From positions 1-64,000 of IMG/VR virus record IMGVR_UViG_2609459856_000007: a stretch of 64,000 nt of DNA; one strand, 5' to 3'. The DNA comes from a virus. Lineage: Duplodnaviria; Heunggongvirae; Uroviricota; Caudoviricetes. The translations under genes were made by a program, and so were the position numbers. Every line of letters starts with the position of its first letter. Position 1 is the first letter of the stretch. Below the pieces are notes generated by a model. It was not told where the DNA came from. It made no database searches and saw only the letters and a program-made list of their open reading frames with translations. Below are positions 20,701 to 57,439 of this stretch, one piece after another.

Positions 20701-21039
20701 AAATCTTCGGGAGTGCGCCTTGCTCTTCGCTCGCCTGAAAATCGCGAGGGAGTGTCGTTCCCTCTCGTGCAGCTGCTGAACTCCATTCTGCCAGACCATC
20801 CTCGGGTCTCAAGCGATTTCAGTAGGTTTTCGGGGAGAAGAAAATTCTGCCCACCAGCCCTGCGGCGCGCGTAGAGCAGAATATCGTAAATACTGGTTCC
20901 CGTGTCGTTCCCGGATATTCACTGCCCAGCCTGGCTTTCACGACATAAAATCCTTTTTCGCCTTTGTCTTATTGCGACAATAACACCAACAAGTAAACAA
21001 CATGTTTAGACGTTATATAAACGAAGTGAGGATGAAGGG

Positions 21040-21258
21040 ATGATTAAGATGCCTGTGACGGTTGAGGTGTGGGGCGTGGATTCCCTGGCTGAGTGTCTGG
21101 ATGCAGTGGGGCCGGAGTTGTACCGCAAGTTGTGGTCGTTCGTCCCGGCAGAAGGGGAATCGCCCAAAGGGAAGGATATCTGGCACCTGCTTAGTGAAGA
21201 TGAAAAGCGGGAGCTGGTGGACGCGGTACACAGCGAGTTCCCGGACGACGAAGATTAA
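21040..21258 (+). CDS. small acidic hypothetical protein (72 aa)
   Basis: ORF preceded by operator motif at 20994-21008 and a GAGGA ribosome-binding site. Confidence 0.5.
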   Translation: MIKMPVTVEVWGVDSLAECLDAVGPELYRKLWSFVPAEGESPKGKDIWHLLSEDEKRELVDAVHSEFPDDED

Positions 21259-21397
21259 GAGTGAGACCACCAGCACGGTGGCTTTTGTCGCTATTAACCT
21301 CCGGGGCAGCGCAGCACCGTAACGATATACTTTGTGGCCGTTTTCTTACTGGTATTGTTTACGCAATTCAGAAAACAACATGTTTAAGGATTGCTTT

Positions 21398-21727
21398 ATG
21401 TTTGCAAATATCGACATCAACCAAATCAAGAAAATGACTCAAAAAGAGTTTGACCAGTTTTATGAGTTAGAAGGTTGGTCTTCCACGCTGATCAATTCGC
21501 GCTGGGTGCTTGAGCTGATGACTCGTGATGATGCTCCTGCTTTGATTATTTGCGACATGGGTGAAGATGCTGACTTTATGGATATGAGCGAATTTTGTGT
21601 GGACACATACAACCGCAGCCAGAAGTACTACTTCACATGCGATAGCGAGAATGACGTGATTTCTAAGCTCTATCTTCACCTTGTCCAGCATTGGGACGTG
21701 CAGGAATTCCTTGAGTTATTCGCGTAA
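21398..21727 (+). CDS. small hypothetical protein (109 aa)
   Basis: ATG at 21398 downstream of operator motif 21372-21386; track ORF 21332-21727. Confidence 0.5.
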   Translation: MFANIDINQIKKMTQKEFDQFYELEGWSSTLINSRWVLELMTRDDAPALIICDMGEDADFMDMSEFCVDTYNRSQKYYFTCDSENDVISKLYLHLVQHWDVQEFLELFA

Positions 21728-21887
21728 GCCCAACCAAAGCCAGCACCGCCTGCTGGCTTAACTTCTCTGTAGCCGCAGGGCAGAACCACCTTTAGATAAT
21801 TCATGTGCCTGAGCAATATGCTTTGTAGCCGTTTTTACACTGGTATTATTTACGCCATTGAGAAAACAATTTGTTTACGGAGTGGTG

Positions 21888-22199
21888 ATGAATACTTCAT
21901 TGGTGCTGGGTCTTGCTGAAGGCCAGGAGAGAAAAGAAAAACCAACCTTAATGGGGCATCTCACATTGCTGGATATCGTAGCGAATGGGACTTCTATCCG
22001 TCTGTTTCGTGAAAAAGCCATTACCTTCGACGCGGGCAATTTTACGCGCTATGTGATGGTAGTTCGTCGCCAGCGTGGAAGAGGGTGGATGTCGGTCCAG
22101 AAAATGTGGCCAGAGGACCAGCTTGAACTGGCGCTGATGGAAGCCAACCGTGTCGCCCAACAAGAGATCCAACGAGCGTCTGTTCAGGCGGTAGCTTAA
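21888..22199 (+). CDS. small hypothetical protein (103 aa)
   Basis: ATG at 21888 downstream of operator motif 21863-21877. Confidence 0.5.
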   Translation: MNTSLVLGLAEGQERKEKPTLMGHLTLLDIVANGTSIRLFREKAITFDAGNFTRYVMVVRRQRGRGWMSVQKMWPEDQLELALMEANRVAQQEIQRASVQAVA

Positions 22200-22320
22200 A
22201 CATGTGCAAGCAGTAGTTAGTCGACCCTACGACAGCCCCGTCCATCCTTCGGGGCTTTTTTGTATTGTAAGTACTTACTTATGATAATAAAATTAAAAAT
22301 TAAACACTAAGGAGAGTGAA

Positions 22321-22716
22321 ATGACCGTTAAACGCGAAAATCTGACCCTGGATATGTATTATGCATCAGAGACGGAAAATGGAGACAAAGTTGCAAAAAT
22401 TACAATTGTGCTACGCGATAATGCCTCCGGCGAAGAAGTTCACACCAGTACCTTAACTCGCACCGGCGAGGCGACAAAGGGGAAATATTCGGTGCGTTAC
22501 CAAAGCATCAGTAATGCTTCTGACCCTTTACTGATAAAACTGGAAACTCATTTCCGTGGCGCGGATCAGACGTTGTTTGAAAATTTGATGAAAAAGGTCG
22601 ATACGGTTTATACATCGAGTTTAAATACCAATAGTACCTGGATGGGACAACACGGTCTGCGAATAATCTCCGGCGAAAAGATCGACACCATTGTCCCTGA
22701 AAGCGTATTCGCTTAA
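22321..22716 (+). CDS. small hypothetical protein (131 aa)
   Basis: Strong ribosome-binding site AAGGAGAG; followed by a terminator. Confidence 0.55.
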   Translation: MTVKRENLTLDMYYASETENGDKVAKITIVLRDNASGEEVHTSTLTRTGEATKGKYSVRYQSISNASDPLLIKLETHFRGADQTLFENLMKKVDTVYTSSLNTNSTWMGQHGLRIISGEKIDTIVPESVFA

Positions 22717-22726
22717 TCCTCTTTGA

Positions 22727-55147: not shown

Positions 55148-55239
55148 TTAGACCGCGTAAAAACGCCTTACATTTGCTCCCCTTATATTAGCGGTAGATT
55201 TCACGCCGACGGCTACTTTTTTTAAAAATAGCGGCCTAA

Positions 55240-55270
55240 ATGATTCCATACTTGTAAGGTATGGAATCAT
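55240..55270. repeat. inverted repeat ATGATTCCATAC-N7-GTATGGAATCAT upstream of the recombinase gene
   Basis: 12-bp perfect arms; the GATTCCATAC motif also occurs near 51845 and 52864. Confidence 0.7.
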
Positions 55271-55370
55271 TTTCAAAAACAGTCTATTTTACTGTTGATC
55301 ATACAAAAACTGAGGCCTAACACACTGTTTATAAATACAGTAAAAACAGGCTTCACTCAGTGAGTGGACT

Positions 55371-56474
55371 ATGAAAAACACTTTTGATAAAGCACGCGCA
55401 GCAGAAAACACCTCTAGAGAAGCCATCGAGTATCTCGAACGCGCTTCCGGTTTGTCAGCAGTGTCGACCACCAATTTCGACGGTGACATGTCGTTTTCTT
55501 CCGCATTCATGTTATTCACTCGCTTATCTTTGCTGATAACGAGACGTCGACCTGAAATAGCTGTTCATTGTATTTTGATACATGTAATGCCGCATATCTG
55601 TGAAGTAAAAGTAAGTGACATTAGTAGGGTTTTAGTCAACCAGCTGGTGAACCCATTAATACTTGAGGGCAAGATCGTCCAGGGCAGACGTGTGTTCTCG
55701 CTGATGAAGCAGTTTCTCAGTTGGTGTGCATTTCAGGGCTTAATTGATACATCCCCATTGAACGATATGTCGCTTAACAGAGTAGCCGGTGGCGCGAAGC
55801 CCACGCCGCGCGAGCGCAAACTGACCGACGCAGAGGTCTGGGTCTTTTGGAATGTATGGGACTACTTCAACGTATGTGAGGGTACAAAGTGGGCGGCCAG
55901 ATTATGCCTTGTAGCGGCCAGACGACCAGATGAAGTGCTCCGAGCTAAAAGATCAGAATTCAACCTCGAATATAATTTATGGAATCAAGGAACGAGGAAT
56001 AAATCGGCTCGCCAGCACTCGTTACCATTAAGCCCGCTAATGCGCAAATGTGTTGAGGAGCTGATCAAATACGGAAAAGGCAGCCAGTGGCTTGTTCCTT
56101 CAAACAAGAAACAGGGGGAGGATGTGCCAATGTCTAAGGTGGCCATATCACAGGCGTTGAGAAGGATTTTAGAACGTCCAGAGTTGATGGAGCTTGAGCC
56201 ATTTACCCCCCGAGATTTGCGTCGTACTGCGCGTAGTTACTTCCCCGCGTTAGGCATAAGTCAGGAGGTATCCCGCAAAATTATGAACCATAGTCTTGAG
56301 GGGATAGATCGAGTATACGATCGGCACGATTATATAGACGAGATGCGAGACGCCTTAAACAGTTTTTCGGCGTACATCGCATCAATCGTAGAGAAACAGG
56401 ATTTAGAGGAGATAGATCATAAGTTCAAGGGAGATCGACTCGCTACTGAGCTAATCCGTGTAAATTTCTCATAG
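55371..56474 (+). CDS. tyrosine recombinase / phage integrase family protein
   Basis: C-terminal catalytic region RDLRRTARS...NHSLEGIDRVYDRHDY (R, H, Y residues); 367 aa. Confidence 0.65.
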   Translation: MKNTFDKARAAENTSREAIEYLERASGLSAVSTTNFDGDMSFSSAFMLFTRLSLLITRRRPEIAVHCILIHVMPHICEVKVSDISRVLVNQLVNPLILEGKIVQGRRVFSLMKQFLSWCAFQGLIDTSPLNDMSLNRVAGGAKPTPRERKLTDAEVWVFWNVWDYFNVCEGTKWAARLCLVAARRPDEVLRAKRSEFNLEYNLWNQGTRNKSARQHSLPLSPLMRKCVEELIKYGKGSQWLVPSNKKQGEDVPMSKVAISQALRRILERPELMELEPFTPRDLRRTARSYFPALGISQEVSRKIMNHSLEGIDRVYDRHDYIDEMRDALNSFSAYIASIVEKQDLEEIDHKFKGDRLATELIRVNFS

Positions 56475-56867
56475 CGACTTGATTGCCTCAACAACCCGCT
56501 CCGACGCACCACGTTGGTCACCGAAACGTCGACGGAAGGCTTCCAGAACTAGTTTTTCATCTTTAGTCAGAGGGGCTGTGCCTTCGTCGCGAAAAAACGC
56601 TAACAGCTCTGGATGACGCTCTTCCAGCACCATTAGCATCAATCGGACCGAATCGGCATCCAATGCTTTAGCCAACGCTCTGACCTTGTCGATCGGAAGC
56701 GGGATTTTGCCGCTCTTGATAAGTGAAAGATTGTTAGGATTTTTATAGCCTGCTTCTTTCGCGATGGTCGCCTGGCTTTTCGGAGAAATCGCGATTAAAG
56801 CGTCAATGTAAGCAGCGTAGCGACCTACTTTAGCTTCTGTTATTTCGTTGGTAGCCATAATTATCAA
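56469..56867 (-). CDS. putative DNA-binding regulator (HTH-like)
   Basis: 132-aa ORF divergent from downstream genes; assignment weak. Confidence 0.35.
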   Translation of the reverse strand: MIIMATNEITEAKVGRYAAYIDALIAISPKSQATIAKEAGYKNPNNLSLIKSGKIPLPIDKVRALAKALDADSVRLMLMVLEERHPELLAFFRDEGTAPLTKDEKLVLEAFRRRFGDQRGASERVVEAIKSL

Positions 56868-57114
56868 CCTGCGTGTTTTGATTTTATATGGTAAGTGCTT
56901 ACTGATATTACATCAAAGGTTAGTGTTGTAAAGACTTATCTATTTTTTTTCGTAGAGTTATTGACCACAAAAGGCTTAATTAATAGACAACTATCTAAAA
57001 AACAACTCATTTAAGAACTTAAAACTAAGTTGTATTTGATATATAAGTATTCCGTATTGATACAATAGGTAGTAGTATTGCAAGGCATTTACGTGTTCAG
57101 TTGGATGATATGAA

Positions 57115-57327
57115 ATGAAAAAAATAACTTCTAATTTGATCGCCCTTGAGGTCGGACATACGGTTTCAATTGACGATGATGGGGCAGCAGCCATACTCAC
57201 TGAACTGCCAACAAAGTCTTTGTTACTTGACATGAAAGACGCAACCGCATACATCTTTGAGCTAAAGGGCAAGTGCTTCACTCTCATCAATACCGGCTGC
57301 GGTTCAGTAGCCGTCCGCACTATTTAA
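57115..57327 (+). CDS. small hypothetical protein (70 aa)
   Basis: ORF followed by 12-bp perfect inverted repeat CTGTACGAACAG...CTGTTCGTACAG (57353-57386). Confidence 0.4.
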   Translation: MKKITSNLIALEVGHTVSIDDDGAAAILTELPTKSLLLDMKDATAYIFELKGKCFTLINTGCGSVAVRTI

Positions 57328-57439
57328 CACCCCCCTCCCATCCTCTCTAGCGCCTGTACGAACAGATTAGATGCCTGTTCGTACAGTGATAAATTACGCA
57401 CATCAGAAAACAAATTGTTTTAACAACAAGGAAATTCTA

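Follow-up and report, generated by a model that had tools for sequence, protein, structure and literature searches.

Operators and partition sites scattered over a mobile element are known from several systems, and it is with these that we compare motif 1, a 19-bp near-palindrome that recurs in a 64,000-nucleotide stretch of Caudoviricetes DNA (positions 1 to 64,000 of IMG/VR record IMGVR_UViG_2609459856_000007, hereafter the window) which from 19.2 kb to its end is the backbone of an SSU5-like phage-plasmid. The operators of the P1 repressor C1 are asymmetric (ATTGCTCTAATAAATTT) and dispersed over the plasmid-prophage genome. Omega of pSM19035 and ParG of TP228 are adaptors of type Ib partition systems, with arrays of 7-bp or 4-bp repeats at a few promoters. 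The linear phage-plasmid N15 has a type Ia system of the helix-turn-helix (HTH) kind, SopA/SopB, with four dispersed SopB sites in the control regions of phage genes. On the IncP plasmid RK2, KorB and KorA govern global regulons, KorB being a ParB-family HTH protein with a 13-bp operator that can act at a distance.

The phage-plasmid shares features with each of these. As with P1 C1, a short asymmetric operator is dispersed genome-wide over the promoters of lytic and accessory genes that appear to be off in the plasmid state; its sequence, however, is unrelated, we noticed no C1 homologue in the window, two operator families are present, and the sites lie at +14 (class A) and -38 (class B). 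As with omega and ParG, a small ParA is followed by a small basic-tailed protein, and a site in the parA promoter would allow autoregulation; omega, moreover, uses the same sites at several promoters as operators and centromeres, as would hold here were the ParA partner the binder. Unlike those systems, we find single 19-bp pseudo-palindromes at about 20 promoters, and the ribbon-helix-helix (RHH) fold of the ParA partner is predicted from a pattern. N15 is likewise a phage-plasmid with partition sites dispersed through phage genes and a proposed cross-talk of partition and expression, whereas the putative system here is of type Ib, and its roughly 20 sites have fixed places within promoters. 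RK2 also has a short palindromic operator at many mobile-element promoters and a partition protein as global repressor, but KorB is a ParB-family HTH protein, and no evidence ties either of the two ParB_N proteins of the window to motif 1. Finally, the FljA family, which binds an operator in the fliC mRNA of Salmonella (PMC4122451), has a member encoded here, class A sites lie in 5' leaders near the ribosome-binding site, and motif 1 shares with the fliC leader the 8-nt sequence CAAGTTGT; in contrast, the fliC leader gives no significant match, about 40% of the sites in some relatives are class B, and the target would be a phage-plasmid regulon rather than flagellin. Because sequences and proteins differ, membership of motif 1 in any of these systems is not established. 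A dispersed operator is of an ordinary kind; this one appears to be undescribed.

SSU5-type phage-plasmids account for about 800 records in the plasmid collection that we searched. S. Typhi pHCM2 and Y. pestis pMT1 belong to this group, and its members bear resistance genes (PMC9600943). We found almost nothing in the literature on how they stay silent as plasmids, and nothing on motif 1 or on SSU5 regulatory circuitry. The two dispersed operator families and three expressed candidate regulators described below provide a concrete wiring diagram, and motif 1 offers a sharp marker for promoters and early genes in the annotation of SSU5-type elements.

A dispersed 19-bp element marks phage-plasmid promoters

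We consider it quite likely that motif 1 is the DNA operator of a promoter-linked regulon. The backbone that carries it matches E. coli plasmids at 98-99.5% identity, the phage-plasmid Cyrano of E. coli LF82 at about 85% and Salmonella phage SSU5 at 70-96%, whereas the first ~19 kb (1-19250) are foreign cargo, including insertion sequence elements. The original prediction had placed an operator-like inverted repeat at eight positions (20994, 21372, 21863, 22762, 23511, 23997, 44024 and 57407); all eight do hold the element, and a ninth copy lies at 19770-19784. In a scan of the whole window the exact pattern AAAACANNNTGTTT has 7 matches against 0.11 expected, a number reached in 0 of 100 shuffles, and with one mismatch allowed there are 21 strand-hits against 2.47 expected (nine strong loci, on both strands, plus two weak ones). 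A 19-bp weight matrix gives the nine sites scores of 21-28 and everything else at most 14, while at a score of at least 19 shuffled sequence yields no site for the window and 0-0.1 sites across the elements scanned. The weak loci, at 38714 and 55276, score 8-12 and were rejected as motif-1 sites.

All nine sites lie outside real genes or at their 5' edge, in a phage-plasmid part of which about 89% is covered by open reading frames (ORFs) and about 11% is not; the sites counted inside ORFs are in leaders that are coding only under the longest-ORF convention. The same matrix and pattern scan found no motif-1 site in the 19-kb cargo, which thus serves as an internal control. Identification of motif 1 as a LexA (SOS) box, CTGT-N8-ACAG, or another host operator was rejected: nothing matched, and motif 1 lacks CTGT/ACAG arms.

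Motif 1 is asymmetric and keeps a fixed distance from an extended -10

The full element is AGAAAACAAnTTGTTTAAG, a double-stranded near-palindrome whose consensus anatomy we derived from 44 pooled sites of the window, Cyrano and SSU5. It had first been described as 15 bp, with 5-6-bp arms and a 3-bp spacer; the conserved unit is instead 19 bp long and asymmetric, AGAAAACAA-n-TTGTTTAAG, with 7-bp arms about a 1-bp centre. Within it the core AACAA/TTGTT is symmetric and near-invariant, as are the C at -3 and the G at +3, and conserved bases continue through the dyad centre; conservation is strong in the left flank, AGA, and weak in the right one.

Motif-1 promoters, which are predicted from sequence, have a -10 hexamer like GATAAT or TATTAT, usually preceded by TGn, and a poor -35. 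Since they lack a good -35, a generic sigma-70 scanner misses them: in the array of small genes at 21040-24512 it found only a promoter of a second type, described below with motif 2. At class A promoters 9-11 nt separate the end of the -10 hexamer, which mostly has a TG upstream, from the 19-mer, so that the site is centred at about +14. At class B promoters the site is inverted and comes after the terminator of the gene before it; 14 of the roughly 19 sites of this class lie 16-17 nt upstream of an ATAATA-like -10, with the centre at about -38. Four independent promoters carry both, 51 bp apart. Whatever the class, it is always the strong half AGAAAACAA that is turned towards the -10. Start codons follow at 8 to 56 nt, a wider range than the 15-35 bp originally given. 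The longer block that had been noted around some copies (CACCAACAAG) is indeed shared, but it is the downstream edge of the common promoter, that is, an extended -10, 10-11 nt and then the site.

Several observations bear on whether DNA or RNA is recognized. Class B sites are untranscribed and mirror-inverted, and the distance that is kept constant is the one from the site to the -10 rather than to the ribosome-binding site. The arms show no compensatory changes, and the consensus RNA hairpin is marginal (-0.7 kcal/mol), no better than those of shuffled sequences. All of these, together with the lack of an Rfam match, argue for recognition of duplex DNA. Orthologues of the gene at 24030-24512 have a class A site in the E. 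coli and Salmonella elements and a class B site in the Klebsiella element, so that the site follows the promoter, not the transcript. A structured RNA at motif 1 was rejected: besides the hairpin result, an Rfam covariance search of 19-58 kb found no family there.

The coordinates of the window sites, of the candidate regulators and of other features are collected in Table 1. A half-site, AAAACAAGTTAAC, lies 10 nt downstream of the site at 19768. In several motif-1 promoters a sequence resembling a DnaA box separates the -35 region from the -10, namely TTATCCACA in SSU5 (93659-93700) and pMT1 and TTATCTACA near 23480 in the window. Each of the seven small genes of the 21040-24512 array has a promoter to itself, of motif-1 type in six cases and of motif-2 type in one, and terminator-like hairpins stand after several of the genes; a Pfam domain was found in none of the seven, and the layout is reminiscent of early or anti-defence accessory genes.

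Table 1. Positions of motif sites, candidate regulators and other features in the window
Feature	Position	Strand	Details
Motif-1 site TGAAAACAATTTGTTTAGA	19768-19786	-	Directly after a bidirectional terminator hairpin; on the left border of a conserved repeat-rich block, apparently non-coding
Motif-1 site, class A, AGTAAACAACATGTTTAGA	20992-21010	+	10 nt after TGcGACAAT; ahead of 72-aa gene 21040-21258
Motif-1 site, class A	21370-21388	+	11 nt after TGgTATTGT; ahead of gene starting at 21398
Motif-1 site, class A	21861-21879	+	11 nt after TGgTATTAT; ahead of gene starting at 21888
Motif-1 site, class B, CGATAACAAAATGTTTTCT	22759-22777		Past terminator of 22321-22716; 16 nt upstream of TGtGAAAAT; centre at about -38 of the promoter of the gene starting at 22834
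Motif-1 site, class A	23509-23527	+	10 nt after TGcGATAAT; ahead of gene starting at 23544
Motif-1 site, class A, degenerate right arm, AGAAAACAATTTGTTATTT	23994-24012	+	Ahead of gene 24030-24512
Motif-1 site AGAAAACAAGTTGTTTCAG	44022-44040	+	Promoter/leader of small (type Ib) parA
Motif-1 site, class A, perfect 7-1-7 palindrome, AGAAAACAAATTGTTTTAA	57405-57423	+	9 nt after TGaTAAATT; ahead of cobT-like/cobS-like (vWA/AAA+) operon
Motif-2 palindrome GTAAGTGCTTAC	56891-56902		XRE gene promoter region
Small ParA ATPase, 222 aa	44073-44741	+	No N-terminal HTH; phrog_164, ParA-like; first gene behind site 44022
ParG-like ParA partner, 119 aa	44741-45100	+	phrog_5111; basic tail RPQGRPTRGK, then strand IKSRTMSLEDE, then helices
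FljA-family protein	26382-26906	-	Two Hfq/Sm-like domains (structure model); PF03614 full length, E = 6e-69
XRE-type HTH repressor	56469-56867	-	CYRAN_45 homologue; phrog_8, transcriptional regulator; beside integrase
Two ParB_N proteins	30301-31667		Backbone
tRNA	53041-53112		Sole Rfam match in 19-58 kb
DDE transposase	54-1172		Cargo
P1-type ParB	4081-5046		Cargo
ParA with HTH_54, 403 aa	5043-6254		Cargo
hsdM	10606-13065		Cargo; type I restriction-modification system
hsdS	13072-14346		Cargo; type I restriction-modification system
DUF4268	14776-15519		Cargo; type I restriction-modification system
hsdR	15534-18551		Cargo; type I restriction-modification system
rve integrase	18566-19252		Cargo

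The cobT-like promoter calls for separate comment. What had been read as a 32-aa ORF leading the vWA/AAA+ operon (57441-57538) proves to be the N-terminal remnant of the cobT-like gene, whose SSU5 counterpart uses the same ATG; the window copy has an internal deletion of about 0.6 kb, and its remainder reads from 57535. Over the -35 and spacer of this promoter lie two 12-bp palindromes 21 bp apart, CTGTACGAACAG (57354-57365) and CTGTTCGTACAG (57375-57386), which are kept in SSU5, occur as one copy each in Cyrano and pMT1, and belong to this promoter alone. A LexA box was rejected for the CTGT-N4-ACAG pair at 57354 and 57375, which has the wrong spacing and is a separate local element.

The proposed regulon is conserved in several relatives and mostly quiet in a lysogen

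Counting sites with a matrix score of at least 19, we find 9 in the window, 17 in Cyrano, 20 in SSU5, 19 in Klebsiella pL3995-2 and 7 in pMT1 of Y. pestis, and none in the Moellerella and Acinetobacter phage-plasmids; the Moellerella relative has half-sites only (AGAAAACAA), at parA and two array promoters. Conservation is concentrated on the element itself. The array DNA of pL3995-2 is only about 70-77% identical, and motif 1 is still conserved there; orthologous promoters of dnaB, cobT and parA likewise hold the 19-mer while their flanks diverge. The parA site at 44022 is identical in Cyrano, differs by one flank change in SSU5 and has a different copy at the same place (15524) in the Klebsiella relative. 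In the complete relatives sites stand ahead of parA, dnaB, cobT, nrdB, SPFH-region genes, tciA-like genes and the small ORFan array, and terS is preceded by two tandem copies followed by a terminator-like hairpin. A scan of viral contigs returned SSU5-like contigs mixed with apparent chance single matches, which did not inform the identity of the binder.

In published RNA-seq of the E. coli LF82/Cyrano lysogen (S1 table; median 9.8), genes behind motif 1 are expressed near the median: terS at 7, cobT at 7.8, nrdB at 13, dnaB at 21 and the array at 6-25, the highest of its genes (25) being the homologue of 24030-24512 (PMC9928086). The parA operon is the exception, at 50-89, with the ParG-like gene at 89 (PMC9928086). 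Low expression in this single lysogenic condition fits repression of motif-1 genes in the plasmid state. Enrichment, fixed placement relative to the -10, conservation and downstream silence thus all support the original prediction that one cis-element unites the small-gene array, parA and the cobT/cobS-like pair; its membership stands, and its extent was too narrow, as the relatives add dnaB, nrdB, the terS leader and others.

A putative repressor from the partition operon is the leading candidate binder

From these properties we infer a bound protein, its identity and a repressive effect. Motif 1 would be an operator built into one class of SSU5-family promoter, with an extended -10 (TGn plus a GATAAT-like hexamer) and a poor -35, lying over the early transcribed region (class A) or, in inverted orientation, over the -35 region (class B), some promoters having the two together, 51 bp apart. 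The bound protein would block binding or escape of RNA polymerase, so that one element-encoded repressor could silence about 20 transcription units in various parts of the element during its life as a plasmid, among them the ORFan array, dnaB, cobT/cobS, nrdB and the terS leader. The most likely binder would be the ParG-like partner of the type Ib ParA, which through the site in its own operon would be autoregulated, and motif-1 sites would then be operators and dispersed partition sites at once. Taken as a whole, with one element-encoded and most likely ParG-like repressor acting at motif 1, this explanation seems to us nearly as probable as not. If the partition adaptor does bind, segregation and prophage silencing would be coupled via one protein.

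The ParG-like protein had already been named as a possible binder; it is still the best candidate, and we assign it the role tentatively, ahead of an FljA-family protein, with the rest of our expectation falling to another protein or to no dedicated protein. The operon has the type Ib layout, a small ParA without an N-terminal HTH followed by the gene for a 119-aa basic-tailed adaptor. In each of the four enteric elements with this operon, motif 1 is the sole repeat in its promoter. No enteric group departs from the putative DNA-reading strand IK/QSRTMS or from the helix FTRSDVIRAAI, and the protein is 90-100% identical in 736 of 797 plasmids (Klebsiella FljA-like protein, ~72%; XRE protein, ~61%). 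The Acinetobacter relatives, which have no motif 1, have a different ParA partner. No ParG-like relatives were found outside SSU5-like elements. The sequence of the protein fits a strand-helix-helix pattern, and it is this pattern that suggests an RHH fold.

Several results weigh against this assignment. Profile comparison by hhalign with five known RHH proteins gave a probability of 0.1%, the Pfam RHH_1 profile matched weakly in 1 of 13 members (E = 0.025), and a sequence search of the PDB found nothing. The Moellerella element keeps a ParG-like protein with the same strand (IKSRTVSMEDE), yet has no full motif-1 site, and pMT1 lacks the parA/ParG-like pair yet has 7 sites, although the pair may have been lost too recently for this to tell us much. 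A simple symmetric homodimer would not, without some additional explanation, be expected at so consistently asymmetric a site. SSU5, moreover, grows lytically despite having parA, the ParG-like gene and 20 sites, so that the binder alone cannot suffice for lysogeny. As regards partition, we see no array of adaptor sites beside the operon: the window, Cyrano and SSU5 have one full site upstream of parA, and extra half-sites occur near parA only in the Klebsiella and Moellerella elements. A centromere, if there is one, could be formed only by the dispersed sites as a set or by the cluster at 19.8-24 kb.

An FljA-family protein and other alternative binders

The strongest competitor of the ParG-like protein, unlikely in our view but to be taken seriously, is the FljA-family protein, which with two Sm domains in one chain would be an intrinsically asymmetric reader of motif 1 on DNA, of class A leader RNA, or of both, and would repress transcription or translation in the way that FljA acts on fliC mRNA. 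Its membership of the family is clear from the full-length PF03614 match (Table 1), and an alignment-based model shows the two Hfq-like domains (a single-sequence model, with a predicted local distance difference test score of 40, was unusable). An asymmetric binder fits an asymmetric site, and class A sites lie in the leader, often touching the Shine-Dalgarno sequence. Its phyletic pattern matches that of motif 1 best: the canonical protein is present in the window, Cyrano, SSU5, the Klebsiella element and pMT1, it is absent in Acinetobacter, and in Moellerella, where the full sites are gone too, it has diverged at otherwise invariant motifs. The gene is expressed in the Cyrano lysogen (PMC9928086).

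The geometry of the sites speaks against this protein. A site in the 5' untranslated region, where an FljA-type mRNA operator belongs, is found for class A only; class B sites are inverted and lie upstream of the -10, outside the primary transcript, a mirror orientation that argues for DNA over RNA, and the RNA hairpin of the motif is marginal. We know of no Sm-fold protein that reads double-stranded DNA sequence-specifically. The protein of the window is only 37% identical to that of the Klebsiella element, yet the motif is identical, and the FljA-like operon is driven by a promoter of motif-2 type. The fliC leader does have the same 8-nt core, but its best matrix score, in a comparison with Salmonella and Citrobacter fliC leaders, is 0.7 (p = 0.12) and not significant. 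Equation of motif 1 with the fliC operator was rejected on this comparison of leaders, in which the 8-mer CAAGTTGT was all that they had in common. A broader version strikes us as more doubtful still: the FljA-like protein would act on promoter DNA, leader RNA or both at about 20 units, the family would be primarily one of phage-plasmid global regulators, and Salmonella FljA would be a domesticated copy, with fliC retaining the core only. Were the FljA-like protein the binder, its family would be redefined, and it would be, to our knowledge, the first Sm-fold sequence-specific master regulator of a mobile element. Acinetobacter plasmid NZ_CP040426, an SSU5-like phage-plasmid with no detectable FljA-like gene, has its own Hfq gene (8234-8773) directly upstream of dnaB.

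That some other element-encoded protein binds motif 1 we regard as improbable. Several small proteins are present in all motif-1 elements and were not detected in Acinetobacter or Moellerella, and candidates could include the products of 24030-24512, of 19433-20056 (CYRAN_59 homologue) and of phrog_1513 (25417-26202). The first stands behind the weakest site and is the best-expressed gene of the array, as an autoregulated gene might be. None of these proteins, however, has a detectable DNA-binding domain, phrog_1513 is at background in the lysogen (5.9), and nothing positive speaks for any one of them.

Nor do we think it at all probable that motif 1 lacks a dedicated regulator, having spread by duplication or recombination within a promoter-plus-leader cassette and being kept for intrinsic properties, such as bending at an A-tract/T-tract, enhancement of translation by an A/U-rich stretch, or binding of a host nucleoid protein or Hfq. 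Longer blocks are indeed common to several array promoters (for example gccttatctacactgcGATAATtacaccaacaag), the A4...T4 arrangement is of the bendable type, and the leaders resemble A/U-rich phage leaders such as that of T7 gene 10. At most sites, though, the flanks are unrelated and it is the 19-mer that is conserved; it occupies two mirror-image positions relative to the -10, only one of them transcribed; a mere A/T-rich element would not need the near-invariant C and G at -3 and +3; and the related elements of Moellerella and Acinetobacter, which have kept these genes and some of the promoters, lack it.

A second palindrome probably goes with the XRE repressor

The XRE-type protein of Table 1 is the putative master repressor of Cyrano, where it is expressed about 10-fold over background (PMC9928086). 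Its gene was among those originally suggested to encode the motif-1 binder, but a tie is more plausible to GTAAGTRCTTAC, a palindrome in its own promoter that belongs to a second dispersed family, GGTAAGTRCTTACC (motif 2). Further copies lie at 19404, 22267, 30286, 33696, 46174 and 59107, and inside genes at 35210 and 57761. With at most one mismatch motif 2 has 11 strand-hits in the window against 0.98 expected; there are 13 copies in SSU5, and it occurs in Cyrano and pMT1. Its place is the promoter spacer, with TTGAAA/TTGATA as the -35 and TATGAT/CTATCAT as the -10. The Acinetobacter relatives have in its place AGTCAGTACTGACT, which occurs 13 times per 50 kb, likewise in promoter spacers and among others in the XRE intergenic region; this sequence is one symmetric base pair off motif 2 and unrelated to motif 1, and the Acinetobacter XRE orthologue is 39% identical, with an altered recognition helix. 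Given motif 2 in the XRE promoter and its Acinetobacter counterpart, we assign the XRE protein to motif 2, which it probably binds.

Binding of motif 1 by the same protein, as a CI-like dimer, is accordingly very improbable: it is an HTH protein and putative master repressor, its recognition helix (N-A/P-N-N-L/I-S-L-I-K-S-G) is conserved across motif-1 elements and the site at 57407 is only 540 bp from its gene, but its divergent promoter region has no motif-1 site conserved between window and Cyrano and does have a conserved motif-2 palindrome, its Acinetobacter orthologue goes with AGTCAGTACTGACT, and the conservation of motif 1 is continuous across the dyad centre, whereas a CI-like HTH dimer is not expected to need conserved bases there.

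Other features of the window

The element in the window is a phage-plasmid derivative with deletions (near 33433 and 37362-37600). A CYRAN_123-like gene abuts the 3' end of terL directly, and it follows from this junction that terS and the greater part of terL have been lost; so have the tail genes that would stand between those for the capsid and the tail fibre. Given these losses, the element can probably no longer form virions. The cargo brings a ParA/ParB pair besides the backbone parA, so that the plasmid holds two partition systems.

To the left of the small-gene array, positions 19800-20900 form a CA-rich, repeat-rich and apparently non-coding block of about 1.1 kb, with the repeats GCCATTACCCA, ACGGAGAAGAAC and CAGGGAAAAGGC. 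It is 93.6% identical to SSU5 90.6-91.7 kb, has motif-1 sites on both flanks, and might serve as a lytic origin, as a centromere or as the gene of a non-coding RNA. A 228-aa ORF (19370-20056) that crosses into this block is probably not real past about 19700. Finally, a strong palindrome at 43873-43895, GTGTACGGCAATTTACCGTACAC, lies upstream of a minus-strand DUF1778/GNAT (KacAT-like) toxin-antitoxin pair and is probably the operator of the antitoxin.

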